From: Amphiscolops sp. MND2022
Lineage: Eukaryota
Assembly: GCA_964187785.1 (NCBI GenBank)
Contig: OZ076412.1
Coordinates: forward strand, 60,512,001 to 60,576,000
Direction of reading: 5' to 3'
Length of the DNA stretch: 64,000 bases
The notes below the pieces were generated by a model that saw nothing but the letters and a program-made list of their open reading frames with translations, was not told where the DNA came from and ran no database searches. Positions 8,837-61,346 of this stretch are shown piece by piece; positions within the stretch are counted from its first letter, which is position 1; each line of letters starts with the position of its first letter. Made by a program: the position numbers and the translations under genes.

Positions 8837-8890
8837 AAAAAATTGTTACAGGATAAAAATGTAAATTATCTTTTAGCTTGCAAATTTAGC

Positions 8891-10203: not shown

Positions 10204-11170
10204 GAGAAATTGTTACAGGATAAAGATGTAAATTATCTTTTAGCTTGCAAATTTAGTGTAATATTACTAAACGGTAAGTAACTTTAACATGTAGTATCAT
10301 TCAACAATTGTGTCCCCGTGACTAAATGTCCCGGCTATATACATTAGAAACTACATGACATTCAAAATTTGAGTCGTCATATTCTAAAAATAGCCTTGAG
10401 GGCTTTCTAAAAATAGCAACAATTCTAAAAATAGCAACGGTTAACTAGTGACATCATCATGATGCGAGTGACTTCAAAAGAGTTTTCCCGACAGACAACG
10501 TGTTGGCAGGAAGCCCGTGTGTCTACTAGACATATTAACATCGTACCTATACTAAAGCAGATTACATGCGTTTCAACATTTTACATGAGATTTATCAATT
10601 GCACGCTACATTTCATTAATATTTGCGGTATTTTGACACTAAGTGTCCATTTTATAAGAAATTAAAGGCCTTTCCAAGTTCCAAGTAAGTGTACTTGTTA
10701 TTTAGCACCTTTAATTCAAAAATGGACTCAGCGTCCGATCGACATGGCAGTCCTTATTTTATTTGTTGACAGGCAGCTAATGGCCGTCTAGTCCATTGAT
10801 CAAAGCGCCACATAAAGTATAAAATAAGAGCACTGGTTATTTATATACTGCACTCTGACTGGTTGAAGCTCATTCGGACTTGCTGTCCAATGCGACAGGC
10901 GAGGAAACATTTGAACACGTTTCCTCTACCTGTACGCCTTGGTGTCCAATTTACTAGCAACGTACAATTAGCGCCGGTATTACATAACACTAAATCATAA
11001 CTTTAAATGATATTTTACAATCAAAGTAAGTAAATTACATGACTTCTAAAGTATGAATGCAGTTTAGTTTAGGAGTTTGAATTTTAAAGGATTGTGCTGG
11101 GTAGGGCTTTTTGATAGTCATGGCAAATAGAATACATGTTGCTATCACAGGCGGACGCCTGGGAGACTCC
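8891..11170. repeat. Direct repeat copy A (~2.3 kb) of 22300-24550: gag 5' part, ~880-bp spacer, 3' end of ORF-X
   Basis: Base-by-base correspondence, mid-to-high 90s % identity by eye. Confidence 0.9.
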
Positions 11171-23596: not shown

Positions 23597-24550
23597 AAGA
23601 AATTGTTACAGGATAAAGATGTAAATTATCTTGCAAATTTAGTGTGATATTACTAAACGGTAAGTAACTTCAACCTGTAGTATCATTCAACAATTGTGTC
23701 CCCGTGACTAAATGTCCCGGCTATATACATTAGAAACTACATGACATTCAAAATATGAGTCGTCATCTTCTAAAAAATGCCTTAAGGGCTTTTTAAAAAT
23801 AGCAACAATTCTAAAAATAGCAACGGTTAACTAGTGACATCATCATGATGCGAGTGACTTCAAAAGAGTTTTCCCGACAGACAACGTGTTGGCAAGAAGC
23901 CCGTGTGTCTACTAGACATATTAACAGCGTACATATACTAAAGCAGAATACATGCGTTTCAGCATTTTACATGAGATTCATCAATTGCGCGCTACATTTC
24001 ATTAATATGCGGTATTTTGACACTAAGTGTCCATTTTATGAGAAATTAAATGCCTTTCCAAGTTCCAAGTAAGTGTACTCGTTATTTAGCACCTTTAATT
24101 CAAAAGTGGACTCAGCGTCCGATCGACATGGCAGTCCTTATTTTATTTGTTGACAGGCGGCATATGGCCGTCTAGTCCATTGATCAAAGCGCCGCATAAA
24201 GTATAAAAGAAGAGCACTGGTTAATTATATACTGCACTCTGACTGGTTGAAGCTCATTCGGACTTGCTGTCCAATGCGACAGGCGAGGAAACATTTGAAC
24301 ACGTTTCCTCTACCTGTACGCCTTGGTGTCCAATTTACTAGCAACGTACAATTAGCGCCGGTATTACATAACACTATATCATAACTTTAAATGATATTTT
24401 ACATTCAAAGTAAGTAAATTACATGACTTCTAAAGTATGAATGCAGTTTAGTTTAGGAGTTTGAATTTAAAAGGTTTGTGCTGGGTAGGGCTTTTTGATT
24501 GTCATTGCAAATAGAATACATGTTGCCATCACAGGCGGACGCCTGGGACA

Positions 24551-32864: not shown

Positions 32865-34302
32865 TGTGTGAACTTAATGTTTTCCATAGACGATTACAGC
32901 GGAACTGACTTTTTTCTACGAATCGGTTGAAGAGTTACGATATTCTGCGATAAGTTGGAGATGAAACCGGAGATCACTCTATCTGGTTCTCCGGTGCCGA
33001 AAACGAATAGTTCAAGATCCTCACAAACGCAAACAATACAGATGTTATCAAACTGTTAAGCTCGTTTTCACCTTAGCATCAGCTGTTTTCTGCACACAAG
33101 TAGGCGGGAAATCCATCATGCTTTCACACTTCATTCAGCCCGGTGTCCTTCCGAGGCGAGGAAACCGGAAGTTCAGTTCTGCTTCGTCGAACTCAGACTC
33201 TCAGTTTGGTCATACTTCCCAGGGAAAGCACGCGTCCACTTCCTGTCTGAGTTGCGACTCCGCTTCCCTTCGCTCCTATCTACCGCCTCTTCAGGACGCC
33301 GAAGCTGAATTCAGCGGCCAAATGTACAGATGATTCAATATTTCACGCCCAAAGGACGGAAAAATAGGAATAAGACATCAACAACCATTCTAAGTAGAAA
33401 TGAAAATATCCAAATTAGTTTAATTAGTTCAAAAGTACTGCTCAACATTTTGGTTAAATCAACAAAGCTGCAAATTGATTTGTAAATTCGCCTATTGGAG
33501 GCGTTAAGACGTTGATCATTTTCAAATAAAGAACCTCGGTCTCAGGCTGTGTTCTGGGACTTTTAGGGAAAAATGCATGCTTTTATACTAAAGGATAAAA
33601 TAGCAACAATTGAAATTTTACATGAGACAAATAATTTTAATGCACTGTTTAAGACACAGAATAATCCAATAGAATGGAAATTGGCTCAAAAGGTAATATA
33701 TGTCACCAATCAGTTACTAATTTATACGGATCAGGAAATTTATTCTCAGGCCGAGGTCTGGGCCGTCGCTTGGTGTGCTTGGAAAATTAAACATAGTTAC
33801 ATGAACAAAACTGCTACAAATTACATGCAATTAACGATTATCGTTTAAAATAATGAGTGTTAGTTCGTGGTTTCATGGGGAAAATAGAAAATCATTGTTA
33901 GCATCATCATCTTTCATATATAATGGATTTCTATGCATTTTAATCCCAGGCCACTCGCCAGGCCGGCGCTTCGCTGCTCAAATCTCAGGCCGGCTGCCAG
34001 GCCGCAGTTCCGCAATTAATACTTCAGGCCGCTTGCTAAGCGGTGTGGTTTGAATATTATTAGTTACATAGCACTGTATTAAAATTAATAACTGCACTAC
34101 AGCTTCATAATATAAATACATATATAAATATAATTTTAACTCCGAAATAATTTTAAAATAATAAATATATATTAGCACTAATTTAGTTGTATATTAGTTA
34201 TTCCACTTGCTTTTCCCTTTCTCTCATTCTAATCCCAACTTCCTTCTCCGTAGACCGCGCTCGCTATGTGGCAGATCTCACAGCTTAGCTGGGGCTGTGA
34301 CA
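32865..34302 (-). repeat. Gypsy-2 3' LTR
   Basis: 33107-34302 is a direct repeat of 60151-61346 with a shared sharp end ctgtgaca (TGTCACAG on -); left end 32865 is a guess. Confidence 0.85.
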
Positions 34303-35600
34303 GTCCTCGGCTTCGTTGCGCTGTCTCATCTGGGAGAAGGAATTTGGAGGTTGACCGGATTGGAGTCACGCATTGAGTCGTAAGATCTCCATGAGGAATC
34401 TGTGTCCCAATCGCTACCTGAACAGTATCCGTCTGAGCTGAATGTCAGTTGATTTGGAATATAACTGACTAATGCGCGTCCTGAAGTCTGTTCACACCAT
34501 TTGTGTTGAGCTTGTTGAATTGTTCAGCTGGCAGACCGAACAACTCTCTTTATATAGTAGATAACTTTTGATATTAATATTTCCATCGTTTTACGCCACA
34601 TCTTCTTTGTGTTATTGTTTGTAGTATTTTCAGAAAGTTTTTTGAAACATGAGTTCTACTGAAGAGGACAACGCCGTTCAAGCATCAAGGTCAAGGAGCT
34701 GGGATAATGGAGAGGGAATTTGAAACTGAGTCTGTTATCGAGTATGTCGTTCGGGAGGAAAAGGAGGTTACTGGAAGTGGTGAGAAGGATGATACTGAGG
34801 AGACTGGAGCCAGTGCTGTTGTTTCAAAGGTGTGTGGTTTCGGCGATAAAAATGTCGACGATGATGCGGACAGTGAGGATGCTGAGTGTCAAGCTGAGAC
34901 TGGATCTTTTGCATTCTGGGACTAGCGATGACCAGCATGATCTTGACTATCTTGCCAACAAGAAAGGTCATCTTTTCCAGAAATTGATAGGTGGCCAGCT
35001 TTTCCTAGGTTGTTCGAACGCGTTCTTTGAACTCTACTTTTTTTAGTGACTGATGATGAGCTTGATCTCTACTATTGTCATTCTTCCAGTACCCGGTCAC
35101 AGGGTAAGGAAAAAACGTCGTGACAGTCGTGTGCCTTCTGTTGGGAGCGTGGGGACTGCCAGACGAGTGAAGCTGTCTGACGTCATTTCTGGGACTGTTC
35201 AGCGCCTCCACCGCTATGCGACAGTTCTGGGGACGACTATGAGCCTCCCACCATTTCTGCATCCAGAACACTTGAAAGTAGGTATCCCATCTTCTTTCTT
35301 GTTATTGGCAACAAAATGTTTATGGATGTATGTTTTTTGTGGTTATTCAATATCCCCTCTTCACGTACTTAGTAATTGTTGTGTTGTAGTCGTTGATCCT
35401 GGGTCACGGGCTGTGTTGGCTTCATCAGAGGAAAGTGATGTCTTCGTTTGTGAACAGTCTCGGGAAACTCCTGCTCTCGTGAGTGAAACTGCCTCGGTTT
35501 TACCGGATGCTGAGATGCGACATGAGAGGACTCAGCATAGTGGTGTTGCAGTTGGTCTGGAGCCATCCATCATCCGCAATGAGTGGGAAAAAGGTATAGT

Positions 35601-35787
35601 AGTAGTGAGTAAAGGGGGGGGGTTTAGGTAGATTTTGAATCCTTTGCAACTTTTGCTAACATGAAAAGTTGGTAGCTAGAATTATCAGCTGAGAGTGACA
35701 GCTATATGACAACCGAGTACACAATGGACTAACCAAGTTTAACGTTGACAGTGGTTGACATTTGGCACACAGAAAGTATCTATATTA
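35601..35787 (+). repeat. Polinton left TIR
   Basis: Reverse complement of 49344-49530, roughly 90% identical by eye. Confidence 0.95.
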
Positions 35788-36145
35788 GATCTTTTATTAT
35801 TATAACCTTGAACTGAAATCAAAACGAAGGTGAATGTGAAACTTACCATATAAGGTGTCAGAAGCGATACCCAGTAATATAAAGAGGAGCTGTAAATTTA
35901 ACCAATTTGCCGAAATTTGACCATTTTGCCAAATTGACTGTTGCTGAAAGTTCCTAGCACAGAATTTGGATTACCTCAGAAAAATACCGGTTAGCGACAA
36001 CCAAAACACGCTGTTACACTGTGCTAGGAACAGCTTCGGTTTTGGACGGAAAACTCCATTTTAAAGGAAAAGTTACATAACCGAGATAAGATATCCGAAC
36101 CATTTTCCTTCCAAATTGAACGCCATTTGGTTCTTCAGCTCCATC

Positions 36146-37021
36146 ATGTCAAGTGTCTTACGCGAAATTCCTCCTCATTTCTATTACTTGGTTTTCTTCA
36201 CTGAAGAAGAAAGGTTGGCTAGTAATCATCAGGAATCGCCACCCTATAAAAAATGCAAACCTGCAGATGAGCTTCAAAACAGATTTCCAGAAAATCTTTG
36301 CCGATTTATTAGGAAACTCCTGAAAAACACTCACTGCGAGTACAGCATCAGACGCCATGGAGTAGCTGAGCAAACGGAAGCAGATCTTTGTTCAACTATC
36401 CAGGGAGAGCATTTCCATATTCTCCTATACATCAAGTCATTCGTGGGCGCAGAGAAGTTCATTAAAGAAACATTGTGTGCCCAATATCTGGGCAACCAGA
36501 AGACATTGAAAGTGACGAATAGTCAAGTAAAGTTATTCAAAATTTCCTACCCAGAGAATTGTCTCCTAACTGAGGCCCGTCTTAGCGGAAACAATTTATT
36601 CATTCACGGGAAGAAACTGGAAAAAATTTTGAATTCGAAACCAACCCCTGATTTGGGATGCAATTTCAACTTGATTTGGGAGCTGCAACGGAGCTGCTAC
36701 ACTCCATTCAATGATAGAGAAGACTCTGAAAAACTTTTTTTTCTAAGCCAAAGATTAGTTGAGCTGCAGAGGTCTCAAACGGTATTCAAAGACAGTGTGC
36801 TGGACTTTCTAGAGCTGCTTGAGCGAGGCTTTGGGACAATCCACGCTTCGCATCACAACAATGTTCTGTCAGTGGATTTGGGATTTTCAGATGCTCAATG
36901 CCAATGCATTGAATGTGTTGAAGGTCAAAACTCGGAAACTGATAATGTCGAGGAAAAAGTGAACATAAACTACACCACTGATTTGTTCACATTCATTGAT
37001 GAGAATGCACAATTTCCCTAA
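36146..37021 (+). CDS. Polinton ORF with HUH-like motif (GEHFHILL) and C-terminal CQCIEC
   Basis: Intact ORF (track 36116..37021); function inferred from motif only. Confidence 0.55.
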   Translation: MSSVLREIPPHFYYLVFFTEEERLASNHQESPPYKKCKPADELQNRFPENLCRFIRKLLKNTHCEYSIRRHGVAEQTEADLCSTIQGEHFHILLYIKSFVGAEKFIKETLCAQYLGNQKTLKVTNSQVKLFKISYPENCLLTEARLSGNNLFIHGKKLEKILNSKPTPDLGCNFNLIWELQRSCYTPFNDREDSEKLFFLSQRLVELQRSQTVFKDSVLDFLELLERGFGTIHASHHNNVLSVDLGFSDAQCQCIECVEGQNSETDNVEEKVNINYTTDLFTFIDENAQFP

Positions 37022-37086
37022 ATCATTTATCAAAAATTTCTGTTGAGAAACAGTTGCTTTAATTTGGACGAAATAAATCTTTCAAA

Positions 37087-37503
37087 ATGCAAATTATTTT
37101 TTCCGCTAGTGATTTGCAAACTGCTTTGGGCAAAGTTAGTTACCTTTTTCCAAGAAATACACTGAGAAAAAACGCATTCCTGGCAGTTTGCTACTGTATT
37201 GATAAAGATGTCAATTTGTGGGACATTAATGACATGGCAGAATTTGGCGGTCTAATAGGTCCCGGAAATAGTATATTGGACAAATATTTCAAACATTTCA
37301 AAATCTTCCGACTTCATGCAATATTTCACGATGCGTTCGGTTTCATGAAAAGCAATTTCGATCTGGGTCCGGGTTATGTATATGCATTATCTCATAAACC
37401 AATTTTCACGAACAATATGTTACTCGGACACTTTACAGGATTAGCTTATTGGCTGCATATGAAGATATACAGGACTACGGAATACGAGAAGTTTTTGCTT
37501 TGA
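37087..37503 (+). CDS. Parvovirus-type phospholipase A2-like protein
   Basis: IGPGNSILD (Ca-loop-like) and HAIFHD (catalytic HD). Confidence 0.65.
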   Translation: MQIIFSASDLQTALGKVSYLFPRNTLRKNAFLAVCYCIDKDVNLWDINDMAEFGGLIGPGNSILDKYFKHFKIFRLHAIFHDAFGFMKSNFDLGPGYVYALSHKPIFTNNMLLGHFTGLAYWLHMKIYRTTEYEKFLL

Positions 37504-37530
37504 CGTTCATTACCGATCCAGCTTGCTCAG

Positions 37531-37782
37531 ATGTCAGTCGTGCGCTCTTACGTTGAAACTTCAATTTCACTTCCCATCTCTCCCACTACCAATTTTTCAG
37601 CTCGCTTGAATCCAAAAACGCTTCTTGTTTGCATAGAGCAGTCGAACATTCCGAGTACAAAAAGTCGGCAGACTTTGAATCGGATTCATTTAAATTTGAC
37701 CGACTTGCAAAGGCTGTACCAAGTTATCAACTTTGTTTTAAACATTAGTCCCTATCATATAAACTTTTTCCAAGAACAATGA
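37531..37782 (+). CDS. Small hypothetical Polinton protein (83 aa)
   Basis: Intact ORF whose TGA overlaps the next ATG (ATGA). Confidence 0.5.
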   Translation: MSVVRSYVETSISLPISPTTNFSARLNPKTLLVCIEQSNIPSTKSRQTLNRIHLNLTDLQRLYQVINFVLNISPYHINFFQEQ

Positions 37783-38072
37783 CAAAAGCAACCAGCGAAG
37801 GGGATTTTGCTGATGCACTGGATGTTGGAGCCGTTATTTTTGACGACCAAAACCGGGAAAGATCGCCATTCGAATTGAATTGTTGCTGTTTCAGAAAAAG
37901 TACTTGCAACAGAACACTTTTCATTCTTCTTTTTCACTACTCAATAATTTTTGCAGTTGTTCTATTCAGTATTGGGTACTTAGCGCTCAGCTCTCAAACT
38001 CATTATCATTCCGGCGTTTTAGCATTACTGTCAGCTTGTATTGGATACATCATTCCGAGTCCAAGAGCATGA
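37779..38072 (+). CDS. Small two-TM membrane protein upstream of packaging ATPase
   Basis: CCC..C then two hydrophobic helices ending IGYIIPSP; ATGA overlaps at both ends. Confidence 0.7.
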   Translation: MTKATSEGDFADALDVGAVIFDDQNRERSPFELNCCCFRKSTCNRTLFILLFHYSIIFAVVLFSIGYLALSSQTHYHSGVLALLSACIGYIIPSPRA

Positions 38073-38768
38073 ATAAGAGAATTAATACAAGTCCTCACTG
38101 TTTCATTTCAATTGTTGGCCCTGGAGGTTGCGGGAAAACTCAACTCGTGTCGCAAATGTTGCAGAATCAGCGGAAAATTTTCAAGCCATCCTTCGATAAA
38201 ATCCTATATTTTTACAACCACTTCCAAGATCATTATCAATCTTTATTGCTTGGGGCATCCGATGACAGAACATCAATTGAATTCCATCAAGGTCTCCAAT
38301 GGTCTGCCGTCGACAAGTGTGAGGCGCAAAAGATGAGAACGTTGGTTGTAATCGATGATTTGTATCAAGATGCATGTGAAGACAAAGCATTTTTGAGCTG
38401 TTGTCGCAAGACGCCATCGCAATATTCACTTGATGATACTAAAGCACAACCTCTATCAACCAGCAAAAAATTCAAAAACTATAGACTTGAACGTTACGCA
38501 AATGATACTCTTCAAGAGCCCTCGCGATATTGAACAAATTGGCGTGTTGGGAAGACAAATGGGCGATCGACAGCTTTTATTGGAGGCATATAAAAGAGCT
38601 ACACTAAGGCCTTTCGGTCATTTGTTGATTGACTTGGATTCACAGGTGGACCCCAAACTCAAATATTCTACAGACTGCTCAGGCAACAAACCTTCTGTGT
38701 TTTACATTTCTACGACTAAAACAACTGAAACTGTAGAAAATGAGTCGACGAAACTTTTATATGCTTGA
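38069..38768 (+). pseudogene. A32-like (FtsK/HerA) packaging ATPase, one frameshift ~38395
   Basis: Walker A GPGGCGKT, Walker B LVVIDD, RHRNIHLMILKHNL, PFGHLLIDL. Confidence 0.92.
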
Positions 38769-39072
38769 TTTGTTCATTGATATGAAACCTGTGGTCAAAC
38801 AAACGTTTTTACTTCATTGCTCGAACGAAATAATAAAGTTTTTCTGCAATTGTCTTTTCAATGTGGTTCATGGCCAAATCAAAATGGCATCAAATGTTTC
38901 CCGCAAGAAATTGGAGAAATTTACAAGCCTGATAGACTTTCTTTGTGCAAAGAGTAACAAAATTGTCAAGAAACGTCAGTCGTTGGCATCTAAAAATGGA
39001 TTAAAACTTTTGCATCTGATAGAACGTTCAATTCTTAATCATTTGATGAAACGCCATGATATCGGGCAGTAG
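38761..39072 (+). CDS. Basic Polinton hypothetical protein
   Basis: FCNCLFNVVHGQI..KKLEK..KKRQSL pattern like the ORF typically following the ATPase in Polintons. Confidence 0.6.
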   Translation: MLDLFIDMKPVVKQTFLLHCSNEIIKFFCNCLFNVVHGQIKMASNVSRKKLEKFTSLIDFLCAKSNKIVKKRQSLASKNGLKLLHLIERSILNHLMKRHDIGQ

Positions 39073-39727
39073 CACCAAAGAATTCGTTCTGATAACACTG
39101 GACGAATACATGTCCTTGTTGTCTTTGAAAACTACCAAATCAGAAATCGCAAAATTCGACATCGCGAATCTCAGCGAATCCTTCCCACAAGCAATCCTGC
39201 CGAACGTTGACAAAAGAACCAGTTGCGAACAGCAAGAAACAAATGCGGAAAAAACTTGCACGCAAATCAATTTGAACTCGAGATTGCAAGCTCCACCCAA
39301 AAGGAGCGCTCCTGCTGATGAAGACATATCCGACAAGGCTAAGACTCTTGCGAAAACGGACAGGATTGTGCTCGATTTGCTTTCCTCGGGACTTTCCGGC
39401 GGCAAAGTTGAGCGATCGAGACAAATCTTGCAAAAAATTGATCAGACCAAGGATGTGTCGATTGATTCAAACTCTTGTCGATTACTTATGCACGACCGAG
39501 ACGTAAACATACCAATTTTCGATTTTTTGAATGACCTACAGGTGACCACGAAGAAATTGAGTGAAAATGCTTTGGAACTGATCAGGAGAATCCGGATACC
39601 AGAATTTCTGATCGCTAATACAAATGCAAAACGTGTTGCATCAGAAATCGCCCACTATCACGAAGAAAATGATTTGGATGAAAAGATTGGAAGTTCCTCA
39701 ACTGCTAAATGGTTGCGTTTATATTAG
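39056..39727 (+). CDS. Polinton hypothetical protein (223 aa)
   Basis: Intact ORF between ATPase cluster and integrase; PEFLIANT C-terminal motif. Confidence 0.6.
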   Translation: MISGSSTKEFVLITLDEYMSLLSLKTTKSEIAKFDIANLSESFPQAILPNVDKRTSCEQQETNAEKTCTQINLNSRLQAPPKRSAPADEDISDKAKTLAKTDRIVLDLLSSGLSGGKVERSRQILQKIDQTKDVSIDSNSCRLLMHDRDVNIPIFDFLNDLQVTTKKLSENALELIRRIRIPEFLIANTNAKRVASEIAHYHEENDLDEKIGSSSTAKWLRLY

Positions 39728-40998
39728 CAAGAATCACTTTTACGCCTAACTCAGTTCCCGACAGTTGATCTTACCGCGGAATATGTATAAAACTAGAAGA
39801 AAACCTAAAACAAAATATTTTATGTGGAAATTGTGCCAAGGAATTGGGTCGAGGTTCTCGACAACATCCTTCAGTCTGGTGCAACGTATGTGGATGTGTC
39901 CACTTTGCGTGCAGTGGCCTAAAACAGTTGAAGGATTACAAGAAAAACGAAACCTTTCTATGCACAAAATGTTCAGCGACAAGACGATTGGTCCAGCCAA
40001 CAGCAGAAATCATTGCACATAGCAAATTGCATAACCTTTACACATCCTGCAACAATCCGTCTGCTTTTGGCAGTCGAACTGCTCTCAAACAGACTTCCAA
40101 ATGCACATTCAAACAAGTTGACAACTATCTCAACCGCAGCGAGACTTATTCCAAGTTTAAACAAACGCGCAATCGTTTTCTCCGATTGAAAGTTCAAAGC
40201 TACCGGTTGAATGAGATTTGGTCCATTGACTTGGCAGACATGCAAAAGTTGGCACGACACAACCATGGTGTAAACTTCATCCTGGTAGCAGTTGACACCC
40301 TGAGTCGGTTTGTTTGGGCAATGCCATTGAAACGAAAAACGGCCATCGAATGTAAAAATGCTCTCCAATCCATTATTAACAATCTCAACTCCAGAGGAAA
40401 GAATAAATCAAACACTTTGAAGCCTAAATTCTGTTCAACAAATTGCGCAATTTTCTTGAAGCCTGAAAAAATTTGGGTAGATAAAGGTCGAGAGTTTGCA
40501 GGACAATTTTCAGAATACTGCACTGATAATGACATCCAAATTTATTCCACGCACAGCGAAACAAAGTCAGCGTTTGCAGAGCGCAATATTCGATCACTGA
40601 AGGCAATTTTATTCAAGTATTTGCACGAAAACAACACCGATACTTATGTAGAAAACCTGCAACAATTCGTGGACGTCATCAACAGCCGAGTTAATCGTGT
40701 CACCAAGCTAGCTCCAAAGGAAGTACGCAAATGCGATGTTCCATATTTGATTTCGTTGCAAAACACTAATACCCCTCTTCGGCCAAAGTTTCACATTGGC
40801 CAGCAAGTGAGAATAAAACGAAAAATTGAGACTTTTCATAGAGGGTACCGCATTCAGTTCACTGAGGAGGTTTTCACGATAGCCACAGTACAAACACTGA
40901 ACCCTCCCACTTATACGATTAGGGACGCCAACAATCAGTTGATTCTTGGGAAATTTTATGAGTCTGAACTAACAAGATTCGAAGAATCTCCTCTATAA
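39709..40998 (+). pseudogene. Retroviral-like DDE integrase with N-terminal PHD-like finger (in-frame TGA at 39766)
   Basis: WSIDLADM, WVDKGREF, AERNIRSLK; SH3-like C-term; CGNC..CNVC..HFAC..CTKC. Confidence 0.9.
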
Positions 40999-41028
40999 CT
41001 CGGAAGCTCCTTGAACAAACTGGTGGAA

Positions 41029-41931
41029 ATGCAATCCCAAGACTTCACAATAAATTTAGTGTCAAACGCCTCAATGGCAACGTTTCCAAACAATACGCTG
41101 GCACAATTCACAACTTTACTACCACAACAGCTCTCCTTATCAGGATCGTGGGAAGTAGCAGTGTCTGAAATTTCGTGGCCTTCAGCAATTCAAAACATTA
41201 CCTGCGGCGAATTCAAGTACCAGCTGAGGCCAGCTCAACCAGATGATAAAGAGGAACAAGGGGAAAAAACTCGCAAGAGGGCGTATGGCCTAGTGACAAT
41301 GTACACCCCTCCTAAAATTGAAGATCATATTGAAGAGAGGACCTGTAGCATTAAACCAGGATTGTACTCGACTGTCGACCAAATTTTGGAGAGCGTTTTC
41401 AAAAAAGTCTTTCCAAGTGCTGCAGCAAAATTGCCAGTTACATGGAAGGTTGACAAATCTTCACAAACATTGAAGGTTTATTTTGATGGTAGCGAACGTG
41501 ATTGCATCCTATTGGAAGCTACATCAAACGATTTGCAAAACGTGTTGGGACTGAAAACGGTCATTGATTGTAAGGAGAGCAGTTCAACTTCGAGAACCAG
41601 CCCTATGAAATCAAAGACTGTCGGCAAGTTTCCAATCGATATCAGCGGTGGGTGCAACACAATCTTTCTCTATTGCGATTTAGTGCAAAACGAAATTTTG
41701 GGAGACTCACAGACTGCGTTACTACGTGCAATTCCACTAAGCAATTTCCTAAGTGAACACCGTGGGCAACAATATCTAAACTATCAAACATTTACCAATC
41801 TCCAATGGCGACGAATAGTCAAATCGAGCATCGAATCTATAACAATTTCCTTACGCAGTGAGTCTGGCCAATTGTTACCTTTTTTAAGTCGGGGCCGCAC
41901 CAACATCACTCTTCAATTTCGCCAACGCTGA
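41029..41931 (+). CDS. Polinton minor capsid protein (penton)
   Basis: FTINLVSNAS..FPNNT..FTTLLP..L.GSWEVAVSEI; IFLYCDLV..ILGDSQTALLR. Confidence 0.85.
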   Translation: MQSQDFTINLVSNASMATFPNNTLAQFTTLLPQQLSLSGSWEVAVSEISWPSAIQNITCGEFKYQLRPAQPDDKEEQGEKTRKRAYGLVTMYTPPKIEDHIEERTCSIKPGLYSTVDQILESVFKKVFPSAAAKLPVTWKVDKSSQTLKVYFDGSERDCILLEATSNDLQNVLGLKTVIDCKESSSTSRTSPMKSKTVGKFPIDISGGCNTIFLYCDLVQNEILGDSQTALLRAIPLSNFLSEHRGQQYLNYQTFTNLQWRRIVKSSIESITISLRSESGQLLPFLSRGRTNITLQFRQR

Positions 41932-41974
41932 GAGCTCCATTCTGGTCAAAGTCATCACACTAAGCGGTCGCTAT

Positions 41975-42466
41975 ATGGATGCTCATTACGATTCTCAAAT
42001 TCGACTGCAAAGTCATCATCAAACAACATTTGGCGGCCCGGCGAGGCAATTTGGATCCGGTGGAATGGGCGCTTTTGCCATGCGTATGGGAAGGGTAGCG
42101 GTACCTCTTGTGAAAAAATATGTGTTGCCAGTTGCAAAAGAGTTTGGAAAAAACTTAGTTTCTGCTTTTGTTCCTGAACTGTCAAACGTTGTTTCCGGGA
42201 GAAAGAGACCTCGCAAAGCTTTGAAAGACACTTTGAAAAAAAGTGCAATGAAAACAATGATGACCGACGGCGGCACGGCGACTACCAAGGTCACGCTCCG
42301 GGAAGCGGCGCCGAACGGGCCTTCGCGTCATTCGGGCTCTCCGGCTACTAAAAAAGGCAAAGATAAGATTACAAGCACTGCTAGCAGACCATTGGCGACC
42401 ATTTCTAAAAAGAAGTCAGCCAAAAGAAGTCGGTCCGAGATTCTTTCTAACGTCAACTTCGCCTAA
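41975..42466 (+). CDS. Basic core-like protein with QxGxGxxG motif (candidate protease substrate)
   Basis: RQFGSGGMG, Lys/Arg-rich, located between penton and major capsid. Confidence 0.6.
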   Translation: MDAHYDSQIRLQSHHQTTFGGPARQFGSGGMGAFAMRMGRVAVPLVKKYVLPVAKEFGKNLVSAFVPELSNVVSGRKRPRKALKDTLKKSAMKTMMTDGGTATTKVTLREAAPNGPSRHSGSPATKKGKDKITSTASRPLATISKKKSAKRSRSEILSNVNFA

Positions 42467-42482
42467 CTTTTCTATTTTGCCA

Positions 42483-43853
42483 ATGAATAGTGGAAGCAGC
42501 AATGGCACAACGGGCACTTTGTTTACTCAAGCGTCGGAAATTGCCAGACCAGTAACGCACACTGCTTTGGACTTTTTCGAGCAACCGACTGTATTGATCA
42601 ATTATGAAGGTTCATTTGATCAGGCAGTGTTTCCCCACGTGGGCTGTCGCGGGCCCCAACTGGATTTTGTCGTTTCAGCTGAAAACAAAAATTGTATAGA
42701 TTTGAACAGGCTTTGTCTGGCTTTGGAGGTGTGCATTTACGGACCAGATGGCAAAGACAAAATTAAACCTGCAGACGTGGACCTCACATTTGCAAATAAC
42801 ATTTTACACTCTCTATTTTCACATGTGGAGCTCTTTCTCGATGGAAAATTGGTTTCCAGCAGCAACAATAATTATCATCATTTGGCCTACATCGAAACTG
42901 AACTTACAACGGACATTGCCAGCAAAATGACTTGGGCTCAATGTCAAGGCTATCACTACAGAGCGAATGAAAAGTCTAATGAAGAACTAAAGATGAAGCA
43001 GCTGGACAATTTTCGAAAAGGCGAAGAATTCAAAATTGAGCTCTATGGCGCGCCGCATATTGATTTTTTGGATTGTGAGCGATTACTTTTGCCTGGGGTT
43101 TCACTCCATTTGCGGTTCTACAGATCGCCGAGCAATTGCGCTCTCGAAAGTGTAGGAACATGGACTGCGGATGACATCAAACGAATCGATCAGGCGCCTT
43201 TCTCTGTAGTTATTGAAAAGGCATCCCTGTTTTTAAACAAAATTGTGTTGTCTGATTCAGTTAGAGTCAGCATAGAAAAAGCTCTGTTGAAAAGTGACGC
43301 TGTTTATCCTTACATCGAGAGCCTGAACAAGAGCTTTATAATCCAGGCTGGACAAAATTGTTTTGTGAAGGAAAACATTTTTGGAACAGAACCCATCCGC
43401 AGATTGACGTTGTGCATGGTGAGAAACAAGTTTTTCAGGGGATCGACAATTGAATGCACGCCGTTTCGATACAAAAAATTCAACCTGAGTAAAGTTGAAA
43501 TTCAGCGCGGCAATGGAGTTCCCATTGCTGGGACACCCATAAGGACTACAAATTGCACCCGTCTTTTTTACAACACCATTTGTGCTCTAGGTTTTGAGAC
43601 TGGCGGGAATGGAATAGGAATGGCAGACTTTGAAGATGACCACTTTTTCCTAGTCTTCGATTTAACCTCGTCGAGAGAAGCGAGCAAGACGCTCACTCTT
43701 TTTCCGGAACTCACTGGAGGTGGCCTCACTCTAAAGTTGGATTTTTAAGAAGCCTTAACGGATCCTGTGGAACTTTTTCTTGTTGGTGAACGATTCAGTC
43801 AAGTATTTATTGACTCTGGGCGTAATATACGAAAAAATTGCCGGAGCAAATGA
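42483..43853 (+). pseudogene. Polinton major capsid protein (double jelly-roll), premature TAA at 43746
   Basis: CIDLNRLCL, FANNILHSLFSHVELFLDGK; frame continues 34 codons (EALTDPVELFLVGERFSQVFIDSGRN) to TGA 43851-43853. Confidence 0.9.
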
Positions 43854-44455
43854 TGGATAACTTTACACTTACAGACTTGGCTAAAAACTGCTGTGCATCT
43901 TCGCGATTTAAATTTGCTGGTGTTTGGTCGGCAAACAATTTCTCATTACCGTCACTGGCGATGAAGAATGAGACTGTTAATACAAGTAGCAAAGATTTTC
44001 AGACGTTGTTTTTGCACTCTTATTTCATAATTAACACATCTCCAGTAGGAGCTGTTGGACAGCATTGGTTGCTGTTATTCATATTGAGACCGCAAGTGTT
44101 CCTCAAGAGGCAATTGAGAACACTTTTTTGCGTATGGGACCCATTGGGAAAACCTATTCAGAATTACACTTCATTTTTTGAACATTTGATGACACTTTTC
44201 AAAAAGATTGGCACTGGAGAAATTTTTGAAATCAAGTTTCCTTTGCAAACATCGCATTCAAACACTTGCGGTCTGCATTGTCTTCACATGGCTCATTACT
44301 TGATGCGTCTAGCTGATCAACACTCTATCAAGCTGGAGACTTTTCACTCTCAATTTGTAACCTTGTTGGAACCGCTAAAACAAATGCAAGAAATCAATTT
44401 GGTTTTATTTTGTAATGATCACTGTAAAACGATGTTGATGTATAAAGTAACATGA
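43850..44455 (+). CDS. Adenain/Ulp1-like cysteine protease
   Basis: NTSP..GQHW, WDPLG, QTSHSNTCGLHC (H-D-Q-C). Confidence 0.92.
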   Translation: MMDNFTLTDLAKNCCASSRFKFAGVWSANNFSLPSLAMKNETVNTSSKDFQTLFLHSYFIINTSPVGAVGQHWLLLFILRPQVFLKRQLRTLFCVWDPLGKPIQNYTSFFEHLMTLFKKIGTGEIFEIKFPLQTSHSNTCGLHCLHMAHYLMRLADQHSIKLETFHSQFVTLLEPLKQMQEINLVLFCNDHCKTMLMYKVT

Positions 44456-44737
44456 CTGATGGGTATCAAACCTGTAAATGCATATAAGATTTACAGAACC
44501 TTGCATATACATTGGCAGTTGAATTTTACTTTTGACAAGCCTTTTTACGGGAAGGTTCATCATCAGGGCTTACATCACATTCAGTAGCCTCGTAGTCTAT
44601 GAAGGGACAGGCAAAACGTGTAGCATCGGAATCAGAAACTTCATCATCGGTAAGGGTTTCAAAATTGATACACTGAGCTTCATGGTCAGAATTCTCGCCG
44701 CTTGTTTGGTTGAGAAAGAATCCAGGATCAGCAGCAG

Positions 44738-44810
44738 CTGAAATTGAAACATCTTCGTTTCACACTCGTCGAGTTTATCGATTAGTACAAGGTATTGTAT
44801 GAAAACTAAC
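44738..44810 (-). other. Predicted intron 3 in pPolB (73 nt, phase 1)
   Basis: GTTAGT..TACTAAT..TTTCAG; last exon open to TAA 44526-44528. Confidence 0.65.
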
Positions 44811-45020
44811 TATATTCCACAGAGCTCCATGCCTGAGCTAGAACACTGCGTTGATTGGCACAAGGAGAGCTGTTGCTAGCAGATTGGCTCATTGTATTGG
44901 ATAGAGAGCAAGTATCAGCACCACTACCAACCTCCTCGTCGGTTTCAGATTCAATGTCTGAAGCATCACCGTCGAAAGAATCATTGGATGCATCAGAATC
45001 AACAGACGAATCACTTTGAC

Positions 45021-45091
45021 CTACAAAAAAAACAAACTTTTTTTTTGCTCGAAAGACCATTCACATCTCCCCAATGTAGAAGTCTACTCAC
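45021..45091 (-). other. Predicted intron 2 in pPolB (71 nt, phase 1)
   Basis: GTGAGT...TTTTTTTGTAG; in-frame join to acidic ORF 44806..45060. Confidence 0.7.
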
Positions 45092-47453
45092 TCGTTAGTC
45101 GACTAGACGATTTCAAGGAATAATGTCCATATGCAAGGGAGGATACCGTGTCATCTAAAATATACCGCTTGTCATCGTAGCAGCTCAAAGCAACCTTGTT
45201 GACAGAGTTGACAATTATTTGATGACTGGCTGATTTGAGTTGAAACATCTTTCTACGTACTGTTGATTGAGAAAGTAGACAGTCCTTGAATAAATTATGA
45301 TGTAGCGTTTTTTTGACAGATTTCTGAACGCCTTTAGCACTCTGCTTGGTTCCTCCCACGTAATCGATGCTATACAATTTAGATCTCAAACAGACAACTT
45401 CTTTTAAAACTTTTCCGTTGAGTTCATCCGTCATTGTTAATGGTACTTTTTTGTTGGTTTTGTCGTGGAGAAAATGATCAGCAGGATAATCCGAGAGGTC
45501 CAGTAGATGTTTGAATGTGGCCATATCTTTATACAAGTCTTCAGTTTTGATTCGATAAAGCAGGGAGTCTGTGTCTTTGTACACTACTTTCAACCGGTCT
45601 GCTCCATACCGTGGAAGCATCTCCTCATAGTGAAACTTGTACAAAGAAAATTTTGACAAATCCAAAATACTCGCGCCAACGGGTGTCGGTTTGTTCCATA
45701 CCACTGAAGAGGGTTTCAAAGAAACAGTAACAAGATTTTTGCTGATGATTTTGAAACTCTTGAAGGTTGCCCGTTGAATGGATGCTTCAGCTTGGGTCTC
45801 CGTTGATACGAACTTTAGAGTACTACGTCTTCTGAGATTTTTCATTGTTTTGCCAAAACAAGCGTTCGACATTAGCTTTTAAAAGTTTTTCTCGAAGTCA
45901 TTTGCGGCACTTTTACGCATTACAGTGTTTTTGGCAATGTACGTTCCCAACCATTTTGACTGTTGAAATTTTACCGCCCGGTGTAGAGTCGTGACTTTAA
46001 GACCATGTTTGACATAGAATTTTAGGTTTTCATAATGGCAAATGTAGTTTTTTTTGTCGAGCAGGGTCTCTACAAGCTTTTCATTCGCCGAGCTCATATT
46101 CAAACCAAATGACTTGGCATAATCCGATTTCCATTCTTTAGGTATTTTTAATTTTTCCGGAGCCAATGGAAGATCATTATGAGAGTCGTGTTTTCCAGGA
46201 GGGTACACGAGGTCAACCTCTACGAAGTAACCAACGGGAGAGTCATTGGGCGTAGACAGAAATTCATTCAAAGTAATTTCAGGACACCATTGATACCCTC
46301 CGAGCGGCATTTCCATTTGCATTGTTCCTGCGTACAGAGATGTTACATCAAAAAACGCCCCAAAAGTAACGTCTTTTTCAGGATTGAAATTATCCAGATA
46401 CTTGTTGTTAGCTTCAAAATGCCTCAGTGCACCAAGACCATTGATTCCTCCTCGGATTGCCAAAAAACAACAGCTGATCAATGTCCTGCATTAGTTCCAT
46501 TTTAACGCCAGTTGTGATTAGCATGGCATCCCAACTCAGGTTCGGAGCCGAATAAAAGTGAGCTGGGTCCAGCTTGTAGACTTGCATGCATACCTCCCTG
46601 AACTTTTGAAAAATGTCGGCCAGGATGAACACATCACTTTTCAGATAGATATCGTGATAGTCGCCTAAATTTTGGCAATGAAAAGCATTGTACATCTCCA
46701 AAGCACAACCATAATCTTGCTCGGTGATTTCAATACGTTGAGTCAAGGTGTTGAACCAGTCAGGGCCATCAGGTGGAAGTGGCATTGCAAATTTTTCGAG
46801 GGAGTCGAGAAAATTGTACGGAAAGAATCCTTTTCTTGTTAATTTTTCAAAGATACTTTCAGTGATGTTTGGGAAACATGCTTTCAACAACTTGAAGTCT
46901 TGCTTGTCCAAGGTTTTAGCTAAAGAATCCAAGCTCTGAGACATAAACTGGAAGCTGTCCAGAAACCGTAAAGAATGATATTGAATGACATCGTGACCCT
47001 TCTTGCTTTTAAATTTTTCCATGGGCATATCCAAAGAGAACGAAATATAAGTTTCATCGTTTTTAGCAATAGCTGACAACTTTTCACCAGTCTCGATTAC
47101 CAAGTATTTAATAATATGATGAGCGTCATAACGCGAAAGGTTGTGAAAAGATACCGGCAGGAAATTTGTTGTTCTCGCACGCAGGTTGCACTTGGAATGA
47201 GCTACTCCAAATATTTCACCAGTTAGGTGACAGTGGTGAATTACCCGTTGACTTTCTTCCATCTCCTCACCACATAAACAGCATCTCAAGTCATCTTGGT
47301 TCAGTAGAGAAATTCTATCATCTTTGGATATTCGTAGAATTTTACATTTTTGTTTCTTTTTGAAACACCATGTTGACCACGACCGAAGCAACTTCATTAA
47401 TTGTTGAATGCAGTCTTTTCCTTTGTAGAACTCTTTCTTCACAACACTGTTAC

Positions 47454-47535
47454 CTAAACCAAAAATTTTGGGTCAGAACGGTTTTTGTGAAACGAAAATT
47501 TTTGATGCCGAAAAACCTAATACTGACAAACTTAC
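47454..47535 (-). other. Predicted spliceosomal intron 1 in pPolB (82 nt, phase 1)
   Basis: GTAAGT...TTTAG; removal joins ORFs 47450..47725 and 46414..47442 in frame (LIDDRSNSVVKKEFYKG). Confidence 0.8.
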
Positions 47536-49343
47536 TTCTATCGTCGATGAGAACAGCACCAAAACTACAGGGAAACTGCTTTTCAATTTCTTTAGTGTTG
47601 CTTCCCACAGTGGTAGATGGATTCGAAGGGACATCAATTGCTTCCAAATCTGCGTAAACAATAAAGGGAACTCTCTGTGTTTTCTGCCAATTGACAAACT
47701 CGACAAAAGGAGCACACGTCGGCATACGAATTTCGAGTGGAGAATTTGATTCACAAAATTTGAAATGTTTTCTGAAATTTTTCTTGATGATAGGCTGAAA
47801 GCAGTTGGAGCAGAATTTTGACTTTGAACCTTTTTTACGTTTGCTCTCCGATCGTGTTAGTTAACCAACTTCCTTCCTTCCAGTTGATAGACATTGATTG
47901 AAACATCATTTGACCGCTCGAAAGTAGGAATACTGGATAAGGGCATTGGCATTCGCGCAGAATTAAATTTCAGTCGCCTCACATTTTCCTTGTGATTACT
48001 AGGATGGCTGGGTCGACCAATGAAAGAGAATATTGCAGCTGCCACGCAGTAAAGAAAACAAAAGTTGTCCTTTTTGTTCTTGATATTCAGCAAGCTGCGG
48101 GAAAGACCTTTAAGAATAATTGGCGTTGCAATGTATGAAGATCCACAGGCCATTTGGCACGTAGCTGTTTTGACTTCAACTGAAAGTAGAGAATCTATCA
48201 CCCAACCAGATCCACAGGATGCGTAAACACTCAAATTGGACATTAATTGGTCTACGTGAACGTGATATTCTTCATCTGTGATATGATCAGCCAAACGCAT
48301 GAAATGAGAATTGAAGAAAGCAGTCACGTCATCGTTGGTCAGTGGTTTCACAAGTTTAACAGCAATGCTAACTCCCACCTTTAAATTGGACGATTGACTG
48401 AGTTTCTCATTTACAAAATCCATTATACTCTGTTGATTCGATATCAAATAATTGAATGGATCGATACACAAGTCTGTTCGCATAATTTTCAAGCGATGAA
48501 CTTTGAATCTATCATTAATGGCTTTAGTCGTGAATTCAACAGGGGCTGAGGAAAAGATTCTCTTTTTTTGATGTTTTATTTCATTCAGGCCGTGATCTTT
48601 TCTCTCATGAAAGTGCAAAGATTTCTCATGCGCAAAATATGTGGAACAAAAGAAACACCTGTGAGCCGATGGAGACTGATGTTGATTTCTAAGATGCTTC
48701 AATAAATTGTGGCTTCGGTTGAATTGACTGCGACATTCTCCGCATTCGAATGAGGTAGAGTTCTCCACCAAGTTTTGGTTATGTTTCGTTTTGAGATGGT
48801 TATTCAAAAACCGTCGAGAAGTGAAGACTTTTGCGCATGTATCACACAGATGCATGATCTTTCATTCGAAAGAATACCTGAAAGAGAAGGCTTTCTTCAT
48901 TGGTTTTTGCATTGACATTTTTGTGCTTTCATTGATTCAATCTAGTTTACTTCAATTTTAGAAAATGTTTCTATCAAAAGTAATCATTTCAATTTTTGTT
49001 GCATTTTTGCAAAACTTTTCAATCGAAAACGAGTCATTGTAATTCGATTCAGGAAAGCCTCCTCTTCGGAAATTCGATCATTTTAAAACCTTGTTTTCAG
49101 TGAACAGTCAATTTGTTTTTATTTCGAAGAAAAGTTCGGAATAATAAATGGTTCGTTTAAAACTGGTGCTTCAGGTTGAAGCAATTTCCATTCGAAAGTT
49201 TTGATAAAGTTCGGTTCAGAAGATTCAGTTTCAATAAAGCGTGGTTTCATTTGAGTTTCAAATACATCTTATCAATGGAAATAGACAACCGGTGTCACTT
49301 TTGTTAGATTTGGGTTCAATTTCAGAACCATGATAGAATTCAT

Positions 49344-49530
49344 TAATATCGATACTTTGTGTGTGCCAAATGTCAACCAACTGTCAATGTTAAACTTGTT
49401 TAGTCCATTGTGTATTCAGTTGCCATATGACTGTCACTCTCAGCTGATAATTCTAGCTACCAAAATTTCATGTTAGCAAAAGTTGCAAAGGATTCAAAAT
49501 CTACCTAAACCCCCCCCTTTACTCACTACT
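49344..49530 (-). repeat. Polinton right TIR
   Basis: Ends ...ACTCACTACT followed by TSD TATAGT. Confidence 0.95.
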
Positions 49531-52500
49531 TATAGTTTCTTGTTTTCACGCCTTATTTGAGTTTGCACTGGTGGTTCTTATTCTTCTGGAAGCTGTTCGA
49601 TATTTCCTGTTGTTGTTGGTTTCCTTTCCTTGGATTTCGTTGATTGTATAAATATAATTTGCTTTTCCTTTTTTGTTTTTAGCTGGATTGGAGACTGTCC
49701 CTCCTGGGTCGCCCATGGTGATGTCTGCCACACAGTGTGTAATGCTCGCTCGATGTGCTGCGCGGAGCGAACGGACTGAGACCATGAAGGAGACCAAGAC
49801 TTTGGCTAAGCGTAAGTTTTATTTCCGTATTTCTGTTCTATCAACTGTTTTGTTGGACTGTTATTTTGTTCCTCCTGTGATTGTTGTTTCGTCATTTTGT
49901 TGTGTTCGTTGGTGTGCAGTTTCGTATGTTAGGTATTATTTGCTTGTATCTTGAAGATTGTGGTGTACAGAATTAGGGAAGTTGTCCCGGCTTCTCAAAG
50001 CAAAAGGAATCGATGCCAGTGATCCCGGCCGCGCCATGGACCCTGTGGAAGTGCGGAAGGAAAAATTATTGGCTCGCGACGAGGAGAAAGTCAAGCGGCA
50101 GTCTGAACGTCATGTCCCGACCAAGACTATGTGTAGTCATCCAGTCCCGCGTTTGTTCGTCAGCCGACGCAACGACAAGAATCCGAACGGATTCAATTGT
50201 GCCATCTGCCAGAAAGATGTCTCGTTCCTGTCCCGTGGGCCCCGAGGCATTTGGAGACACTTCAAATGTAAAGTACACTATTTGAAGGATCGGAGGTCTC
50301 GGTTCGACCATGAAGAAGTGATATATACAGAGAATTTCGATGCGATTTCCGTTAATGAAATATCGGCAGAGTTGCGGGAAGGAATTGAGAAGAACCCTCC
50401 AGTTACTCTGGGCAAGATGAACCGATTCCTTGAGGACAAGGTGGATGCATTGTTTGGCGTCCCGTCCAATGTGCCACCTTCGACGCTCGTGGTTTGTTTG
50501 CTCGAGCTTTTAAGGAGAGGGTATCACAAGTTTTCTTACGCCGACTATGGAACCAGTTCAGGACCACACTGCCGGTTGAAAGTCCTTATGCATCTGTCCC
50601 CTGGAGCAAGACCGAGACCTTAGTGGTGCTGGTACAGACTCTGTATCCTCGTGTGTTGCGGCGGGTTAAATTCTGGCTGGGGGACAGTCCTTTTTTTAGC
50701 TTGATGCTGCAGTCTTCGCATTTCGGTGTGAGGTGCATCGTCCGATGCTGCACCGATGATTCTACCCGCGAAATTTGCATTGTGGACGAGGATCAGGCTG
50801 CTGTTTCCTGTGAGGCTGAGATTCAGGGTTTGGCTCGGGCCCTGTCACTGGTGTCGACTCGTCGAGGACCTGTTGCTGTCGAGAATTGCCCTCCTATTCT
50901 TTTCAACGCTTACGTTGATTGGTGCCACTCAGTTGGACGGCCTGTGCCTTTGGTCGCTGTGTCCTTCGATGGGATCCAATTGCGTCGGCTTGTAAATGAG
51001 TCGGGCTTCGCGTGTGTTGGGTCAGTGGATGCATTCGCTGTTGTAGAGTATCTGGCTCAGCGTTTGAAGAGGGTTCGCCATCAGGCGTGGCTCCTGAATC
51101 TGCCCAGGTTTCGCCTCTGCGTGGAGGATGGTGCTGCCCCTTTGTAATATTGTGTGATGTTCTGGAGGAACTTTTAGAGAACTGGTCGGATGTGAAAATT
51201 TGCCTTGCTAAAGATGTGCTCTTGATGAAGAAGTCTATTAATGTGGTCGATCTTGATTCTCTGCTCTGTTCGGACCGTCTGGGGCTTCCTCGTCTTGAGT
51301 TGCTTCATGTTGTGTTGCTGTGTTTCCGGACCAATTGTGCGAAGCTGTTTGATGTGTCAGTTAAGGATTACGCCTGCAGAACTTTTGTTGACTTCTGTTT
51401 CTTTCACTTCTAAGTCTTCTAAGTAAAGTGAAAAAAGTGAGTCATCTGCCCTCCATCGACCGTTGATTTGATTATATCGACAAGCCCCTAACGAATTGGC
51501 CTAACGTTACTGCTGCTGAGTGTCTCCAATGCAAACCTAGCATCCAAAGGTCTCTGCGCGGATTCGACGTTGCGCCTCGACGATCCTTCTTGCGGGAATG
51601 CCAGGCTTTCTTGTTGGAGTTCCTCAAACAGCTCAGTTCGTCGAACTGTGCCAGTTCCCGAGTCGCCTGTTCGCTCAGTTGCCTAAGTGTGGACATGTTG
51701 CTTGGGGGGAATGCCGATTACGTCGTGGAGCTGTTCCAAGACTTAGTCACTTGTTTCCAGGAAGCTGGTTATCTGGATAGTGTGGATCGGGAAGCGGCTG
51801 TAAACGAGTTCAAGTCGTTGGTGGTAGAATTTCGTCAGCAGTCAACGGATTCATCTCAGATAGGAGATGTGTTTACCTATCTGGAAAGTGATGCTAGCTA
51901 TCAGTGTCGGGCCCATGTTAAGCAGATAGTTCGGTTTGTACGGGTCATTGTGAGTTCTGCTCCTGCTGCTATGCCTGCTGTTGATATTTCCATTAGTGGG
52001 ACAAATCTTCCAACAAGTGTTATCCGTTCTGGTCTGGGTGCAGTACAGTCGTTTGTGCTCCATCCTAAGTTTATGGCGGGTGATTTGCTAACAGTAGGAT
52101 GTTTGGAAGAGCTGAAAGTCAACCTGCTTGTTGGGCATCGGTTTCTTGCGCGTAGTGAGTTCGATCCGTGGACTGATGTGAGTCGTCATCCTCATGCGTA
52201 TATTTACAGTAGTCTCTTCCAATGTTATACAGCTTATTATTCGGGACAAGTTGAGGAGTAGAGGGCCCGGATGTCGACTGCTGGTGCTTCTTCTAGTGCG
52301 ATTCCTGAGGTCGGTCAAAGCACAGCCAGTTCTTCTTTCAGAACGGCAAAAGGTAATACCAGAGCACCTCGGTCGTGTAAATCAGCTTGAAAACTTTCTG
52401 GCTTTGAAAATTTGTGGATGGATGTTCGTTGAATGTTTGTATATGGTTTTCCATTTACCTGTTGTTACATTTGATTTTGTTCGATTTGTTTTTTTTTCGG

Positions 52501-60150: not shown

Positions 60151-61346
60151 GGAAAATCCATCATGCTTTCACACTTCATTCAGCCCGGCGTCCTTCCGAG
60201 GCGAGGAAACCGGAAGTTCAGTTCCGCTTCGTCGAACTCAGACTCTCAGTTTGTTCATTCTTCCCAGGGAAAGCACGCTTCTACTTCCTGTCTGAGTTGC
60301 GACTCCGCTTCCCTTCTCTCCCATCTCCCGCCTCTTCAGGACGCCGAAGCTGAATTTAGCGGCAAAATGTACAGATGATTCAATATTTCACGCCCAAAAG
60401 ACGGAAAAATAGGAATAAGACATCAACAACCATTCTAAGTAGAAATGAAAATATCCAAATTAGTTTAATTAGTTCAAAAATACCGCTCAACATAGTGGTT
60501 AAATCAACAAAACTGCGAATTGAATTTTAAATTCGCATCTTGGAGGCGTTAAGACGTTGATCACTTTCAAATAAAGAACCCCGGTCTCAGGCTGTGTTCT
60601 ACTCTTTTAGGGAAAAATGCATGCTTTCATACTAAAGGTTAAAATAGCAACAATTGAAATTTTACATGAGACAAATCATTTTAATGCACTGTTTAAGACG
60701 CAGATTAATCCAATAGAATGGAAATTGGCTCAAAAGGTAATATATGTCACCAATCAGTTACTAATTTATACGGATCAGGAAATTTAATCTCAGGCCGAGG
60801 TCTGGGCCGTCGCTTGGTGTGCTTGGAAAATTAAACATAGTTACATGAACAAAACTGCTACAAATTACATGCAATTAACGATTATCGTTTAAAATCATGA
60901 GTGTTAGTTCGTGGTTTCATGGGGAGAATAGAAAATCATTGTTAGCATCATCATCTTTCATATATAATGGATTTCTATGCATTTTAATCTCAGGCCACTC
61001 GCCAGGCCGGCGCTTCGCTGCTCAAATCTCAGGCCGGCTGCCAGGCCGCAGTTCCGCCATTAATACTTCAGGCCGCTTGCTAAGCGGTGTGGTTTGTTTA
61101 TTATTAGTTACATAGCACTGTATTAAAATTATTAACTGCACTATAGCTTCATAATATAAATATATATATAAATATAATTTAAGCTCCGAAATAATTTAAA
61201 AATGATAATTATATATTAGCACTAAGTTAGTTGTATATTAGTTATTTCACTTGCCTTTCCCATTCTTTCATTCTAATCCCAACTTCCTTCTCCGCAGACC
61301 GCGCTTGCTATGTGGCAGATCTCACAGCTTAGCTGGGGCTGTGACA
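60151..61346 (-). repeat. Gypsy-2 5' LTR (inner end lost in gap)
   Basis: Direct repeat of 33107-34302, about 90-95% identical by eye. Confidence 0.85.

Follow-up and report, generated by a model that had tools for sequence, protein, structure and literature searches.

A Polinton/Maverick element in a 64,000-nt stretch of Amphiscolops sp. DNA (the window) carries a protein-primed family B DNA polymerase gene (pPolB) that is cut by three short segments. These are very probably genuine spliceosomal introns, gained stepwise in the pPolB of one lineage and likely removed by the host. Related elements carry the segments at the same positions, and it is very likely that they were gained one after another. 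The element otherwise appears to be an ordinary Polinton, whose polymerase gene looks to have acquired old, inherited introns in steps. Intronless core genes are usual in descriptions of Polintons; pPolB departs from this description, and the membership of the element is unaffected.

Results

The element, 13,930 bp long with termini AGTAGT, is flanked on both sides by a 6-bp target-site duplication, TATAGT (35595-35600 and 49531-49536). Its terminal repeats start with AGT, and the arms at 35612-35752 and 49380-49520 are 93% complementary. pPolB lies on one strand, and the integrase, ATPase, protease and capsid-like genes lie on the opposite strand (Table 1). The polymerase matches PF03175 above the cut-off in two pieces and contains the YKDTDS motif; its nearest named homologue, from the acoel Convolutriloba macropyga, is 54% identical. 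The integrase match to PF00665 (E = 1.4e-6, 28.9 bits) falls under the cut-off of 32.6. For the major capsid candidate, the Atlas gave look-alikes at 0.97, with a DJR-like family on 14% of members, and the PDB gave no match by sequence; the minor capsid candidate had no family match above the cut-off. The terminal inverted repeats (TIRs), the 6-bp duplication, the protein-primed family B polymerase, the integrase and the ATPase/protease/capsid set identify the element as a Polinton.

Table 1. Features of the Polinton/Maverick element in the window
Feature	Position	Strand	Remarks
Polinton/Maverick element	35601..49530		TIRs and 6-bp TATAGT duplication
Left terminal inverted repeat	35601..35752	+	Arm complementarity, element ends
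Packaging-type ATPase	38069..38768	+	P-loop match
rve integrase	39769..40998	+	Unsplit in sister copies
Likely minor capsid/penton	40999..41931	+	From position and size; unsplit
Likely major capsid protein	42483..43748	+	Double jelly-roll look-alikes
Cysteine protease	43826..44455	+	Peptidase_C48 match; unsplit
pPolB exon 4	44526..44737	-	Tail with DPGF, PFI-x-x-EA and basic end, then stop codon
pPolB intron 3 (putative)	44738..44810	-	73 nt, phase 1; acceptor 8 nt ahead of DPG motif
pPolB exon 3	44811..45020	-	210 nt; Asp/Glu/Ser-rich tail, first half
pPolB intron 2 (putative)	45021..45091	-	71 nt, phase 1, directly after LAYGH end of polymerase core; in-frame stop inside
pPolB exon 2	45092..47453	-	Endonuclease-VII-like segment and DNA_pol_B_2 core
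pPolB intron 1 (putative)	47454..47535	-	82 nt, phase 1; youngest, limited to one clade
pPolB exon 1	47536..48855	-	ATG at 48855, C2H2 zinc fingers, N-terminal region, YADLE motif
Right terminal inverted repeat	49380..49530	-	Arm complementarity, element ends

The earlier note had proposed three minus-strand introns of 82, 71 and 73 nt (47535-47454, 45091-45021 and 44810-44738), and each segment was found exactly there with the ends described: GTAAGT...TTTAG, GTGAGT...TGTAG and GTTAGT...TTCAG, respectively. Phase 1 proved correct for all three, and the 210-nt piece between the second and third is free of stops. Between 44400 and 48900, the coding strand has no GT[AGT]AGT hexamer besides these three donors, against 2.5 expected; since this count is not above chance, the evidence lies in the position of the donors and not in their number. 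The reported TACTAAT is present in segment 3, at 44787-44781, about 44 nt from the acceptor. It was seen only in intron 3 of the window's family and is changed in one sister copy (L040), and it constitutes weak evidence for a branch site.

Searching the 1.07-Gb genome first recovered segment 1, at 66-82 nt, in 30/30 loci. A second search, with a homologue that reads straight across site 1 as the query, found both split and unsplit families. The site 1 set comprised 131 loci, 114 with both anchor motifs, with some places counted twice and many near-identical copies. Thirty-six of the 114 had no insert, the anchors lying 39 nt apart in 35 of them and 36 nt apart in one, and the remaining 78 had an insert of 59-87 nt. 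The donor GT stood 16 nt past the upstream anchor in 77/78 and the acceptor AG stood 23 nt ahead of the downstream anchor in 71/78, and 16 + 23 nt is the unsplit spacing of 39 nt. Removing the 82 nt from the window's gene likewise leaves 39 nt, as in the insert-free loci, so the claimed in-frame join is exact and, by the proposed alignment to unsplit homologues, the segment is not needed as coding sequence. Among the eight exceptions, five retain the AG, displaced by a small indel in the next exon, and three lost a site; a few copies with a lost splice site are L019, L025, L088 and L116. Insert lengths fell across the three mod-3 classes (18/29/31).

Seven types of intron 1 occur in the Amphiscolops genome (82, 62, 66-68, 59-63, 66-69, 87 and 88 nt), and the intron sits at an identical codon position and phase in these seven families and in one outside metagenome contig (L242), where it measures 111 nt. 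From one family to another the interiors did not align, showing p-distances of 0.35-0.41 and several gaps. The U2-type signals, consisting of a GT donor, a pyrimidine-rich tract and an AG acceptor, were kept across diverged copies, which bears out the suggested check that GT/AG ends would be conserved: they persist across families that share no interior sequence. Intron 1 is older than the families that carry it. In six loci (L114, L116, L117, L121, L147 and L149), intron 1 or 2 is a stop-free multiple of three and the frame reads through; such introns would be mis-called as coding insertions.

We also examined the two downstream sites, which interrupt an acidic C-terminal tail. At site 2, a phase-1 GT 19-31 nt past the GH motif was followed by an acceptor and an open acidic middle piece in 16/16 copies examined; this piece is rich in Asp, Glu and Ser and 56-73 codons long. 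At site 3, an AG stood 8 nt before DPG in 39/41 loci, including families free of intron 1. The donors of both sites are ambiguous in some families, with two candidates. The last piece of the tail carries DPG, PFI-x-x-EA-like and basic motifs. As a whole, the tail (window 44526-45020, minus strand; L186-L204) has 150-200 residues and occurs in the pPolBs of the split clade and its sister, with the motifs D[PL]G, often [VI]DW[DE], PFI-x-x-EA and a basic end. It had no Pfam match and no Atlas match, and it was not found in 48 distant pPolB homologues examined, 42 of which end 3-15 residues past the GH motif. Its FIDDEA-like motif presumably resembles motifs of Mrc1/Claspin and Spt5-type proteins.

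Distant families carry the polymerase and the tail in one genomic frame (L186-L194 and L202, up to 1463-1512 aa), showing that the tail belongs to the polymerase and that introns 2 and 3 interrupt it. These unsplit families have the same tail motifs and 86-87 codons from GH to DPG, and the window has 83 without its inserts (65-87 codons in the compared families). Two database proteins, P0009 and P0149, also join polymerase and tail in one frame, and they may stem from transcripts or gene models. Two others, P0013 and P0020, continue across site 2 and end near site 3; if their genomic DNA is arranged likewise, intron 3 would predate intron 2. The single genomic frame of the distant families led us to reject a scenario in which polymerase and tail became fused once intron 2 took an ancestral stop out of the message. 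The in-frame stop just past donor 2 was likewise rejected as a special feature, since phase-1 GTTAG donors yield a stop automatically; one family variant (L147, L149) has an intron 2 with no stop.

Exons 1 and 2, which flank intron 1, evolve under purifying selection: among copies of intron-1 families, dN/dS was 0.23 and 0.09-0.12, respectively, in comparisons that left out exon 1 of L035 (frame lesion) and all pairs from the window's own family. For tail exon 4, four pairs gave dN/dS values of 0.21-0.33; two close pairs, which differ by few changes, gave 0.74 and 1.18 and show weak constraint.

Next, the order of gains was assessed with two quick IQ-TREE trees (SH-aLRT support only) built from unjoined core stretches of copies with at most two stops in the stretch, 26 loci in one tree and 17 in the other. 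In both, the rows with intron 1 came together as a single group (support 99 and 98) inside a wider set of insert-free rows. This group includes P0001, a 96% identical stand-in for the window's family, and sits among families with introns 2 and 3 only, with families unsplit at all three sites outside. The three intron states need only two changes on the tree. Because the carriers form one clade nested among non-carriers, intron 1 would reflect a single gain; because distant families hold tail and polymerase in one open frame, introns 2 and 3 would be older gains. The order would then run from an unsplit polymerase-plus-tail gene, through introns 2 and 3 in the tail, to intron 1 just past the YADLE motif. 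Long branches meet where the unsplit and split groups join, so the direction of change is more secure for intron 1 than for introns 2 and 3.

A fourth site was found in a distant Polinton lineage (L197:1560-1900; L198, L200, L201, L206-L217, L218 and L219), which carries a phase-2 GT-AG insert after the RINIF motif. The insert is 121 nt long in 15/16 loci and 139 nt long, with another interior, in L218 and L219. Its removal leaves six codons, the same as in unsplit sister families, and it likely represents an independent gain.

The copy in the window is also broken by ordinary mutations. Exon 1 has a 115-nt deletion with a stop near 47860; in exon 2, a deletion near 46460 shifts the frame and a stop codon at 45879-45881 cuts it short. 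The introns thus account for only part of the apparent decay. The suggestion that introns make such elements look more decayed than they are thus holds for the split frames and does not extend to the deletion, frameshift and stop seen here. In addition, the likely major capsid gene has a premature stop (456 aa in sister copies) and the ATPase gene is frameshifted (a single 233-aa frame in sister copies). Genes other than pPolB are contiguous ORFs of similar lengths in the mapped families (16 further loci), so coding introns seem restricted to pPolB. Three sister copies match the window's element at 99.4-99.5% identity and 13 copies hold the 82-nt frameshifting segment unaltered, which together point to a recent spread of the window's family.

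Sister copy L158 has capsid-region genes duplicated or rearranged internally at its left end. At L091 and L166 (G000:C8:49674300-49689200), a pPolB of the intron-1-free type adjoins a structural module that resembles, in its ORF starts and ends, that of the L163 family, which is of the intron-1 type; a module swap or nested elements are possible. Elsewhere in the window, long direct repeats of 93-99% identity (8284-10920 with 22280-24304, and 33106-33859 with 60151-60903) and long minus-strand ORFs probably belong to other transposons.

Two other explanations would deny that the segments are introns. They could be disabling insertions in dead pPolBs, with the split families spreading only by borrowing polymerase from unsplit ones in the same genome. 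Unsplit families do coexist there, and most copies, the window's included, carry further lesions. We regard this as exceedingly improbable given the purifying selection on either side of site 1, the preservation of split-family frames across roughly 0.2-0.5 substitutions per site, and the retention of GT/AG ends while the interiors were randomised. It is also very improbable that the segments are spacers between separate genes, encoding an N-terminal protein, a core and small acidic proteins and expressed by re-initiation or trans-splicing. The proteins that ORF callers predict (P0001-P0004) do run from just past site 1 to a stop within site 2, the site 2 stop gives a C-terminus resembling that of other pPolBs (42/48), and the accessible text on an acoel reports spliced-leader (SL) trans-splicing (PMC9911081). 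Yet the exact unsplit spacing returns at site 1, donors and acceptors are equally conserved, no common start codon follows site 1, and in unsplit relatives all parts lie in one frame.

A further possibility accepts the introns as real and makes them ancestral, with the unsplit families having lost them. The root depends on long branches, and the evidence from P0009, P0013, P0020 and P0149 at sites 2 and 3 is protein-only and may come from spliced transcripts or gene models, both of which leave room for loss. This would, however, require several independent exact losses at site 1, in elements that have no reverse-transcription step of their own, and distant metagenome loci read through site 1 in 8/10 cases by a scripted test and 10/10 by inspection. 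We therefore consider loss improbable; the trees favor the gain in a virus-like element that the earlier note had put forward.

Discussion

Polinton replication proceeds from DNA to DNA without reverse transcription, and a cleanly spliced intron would consequently be kept in daughter copies. Most likely, host Pol II transcribes pPolB in the nucleus and the U2 host spliceosome removes the introns, yielding one polymerase with an acidic tail. An efficiently spliced intron would never be purged and would pass to all daughter copies, with selection holding only the intron ends. An active introner origin of intron 1 was not supported: when intron 1 was searched in the genome, 30/30 matches lay within pPolB copies and none elsewhere. 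An ancient introner origin is conceivable. When the three introns were folded, z was -1.5, -2.3 and 0.0, and they had no structure in common.

Host genes provided a comparison for splice signals. Introns in the host's chaperonin genes are of the ordinary GT-AG kind and have T-rich acceptors, and the host introns inferred from resolved gaps, a small sample biased to long introns, measure 295-2396 nt, longer than those of pPolB. Host PGK and one chaperonin gene (L157; L222) are single-exon, and other chaperonin genes have several introns; being intronless, PGK offers no control for splice signals. For an acoel, the accessible text gives 3.2 introns per gene (PMC9911081).

As the earlier note stated, Polinton genes are generally described as intron-poor or intronless, and the accessible parts of two papers say so of core genes. 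No introns are reported in intact vertebrate Mavericks (PMC8097293), and nematode Polinton core genes are given as intronless, with introns in cargo genes only (bioRxiv 10.1101/2022.07.12.499685). Endogenous viruses or EMALE genes are stated to lack introns in the portions available of PMC10120064 and PMC8547959. Our literature search, with subscription papers, Repbase and supplements largely outside it, found no paper that describes an animal Polinton core gene with inherited spliceosomal introns. Kapitonov and Jurka reportedly also agreed, in 2006, on the absence of introns in Mavericks. A viral collection held no match for P0009 and one distant locus for the clade alignment.

In other respects the element is like the vertebrate and nematode Polintons as far as these are described in the available text (PMC8097293; bioRxiv 10.1101/2022.07.12.499685), with TIRs, a 6-bp duplication and the integrase, ATPase, capsid and protease genes packed together opposite pPolB. 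Unlike them, pPolB here has two to three conserved introns in many families and an acidic tail. Spliceosomal introns within Polinton-like DNA are shared with the dinoflagellate Maverick-Polinton-like elements, which, in the accessible text of PMC11957031, carry introners mostly inserted post-integration. Those introns are repeated mobile elements (PMC11957031), whereas intron 1 here is found only in pPolB, at one inherited position in a core gene. Intron-bearing DNA transposons such as those with CACTA transposases (PMC4158355) are also similar in that the key enzyme gene of a DNA-replicated element needs host splicing. Four other sources (PMC12220804, PMC8502044, PMC11296320 and bioRxiv 10.1101/2023.08.22.554363) concern, in their accessible parts, self-splicing introns or unrelated matters only.

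Spliced polymerase mRNA is also familiar from adenovirus E2B, where splicing mainly adds leaders. Here, in contrast, introns cut the coding region, and the element classes differ.

These introns bear on how Polintons are detected. In the accessible text, screens for intact Polintons demand intronless ORFs (PMC8097293), and other screens rely on gene callers made for prokaryotes, the stated reason being that introns are absent from endogenous viruses (PMC10120064). Intron-split lineages would then count as decayed and their polymerases as truncated, as befell database entries P0001-P0004. A polarised series of gains within one gene (0, 2 and 3 introns, plus an independent gain), with unsplit sisters alongside in the genome, is also rare and useful for studying intron origin. 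Long-lasting nuclear, Pol II-dependent propagation of these elements would be implied.

The introns might serve the element itself. On this account, dependence on the spliceosome would be specific to pPolB and repeated (at least four gains in two lineages), with the introns used for a tail switch or as a licence for expression, which we consider unlikely. A transcript retaining intron 2 would encode a polymerase that stops where pPolBs usually stop and lacks the conserved acidic tail, including its basic, NLS-like end, and splicing would then toggle between tailed and tail-less polymerase. Alternatively, the host would silence repeats that have no introns, and the presence of introns would allow expression.

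Upstream of the coding region, a pyrimidine-rich CAG at 48877-48891 (minus strand) precedes the pPolB ATG by 22 nt, or 15 nt in L031. An acceptor-like CAG ahead of the ATG is not common to all families; where present, it may be a leader or trans-splice acceptor.
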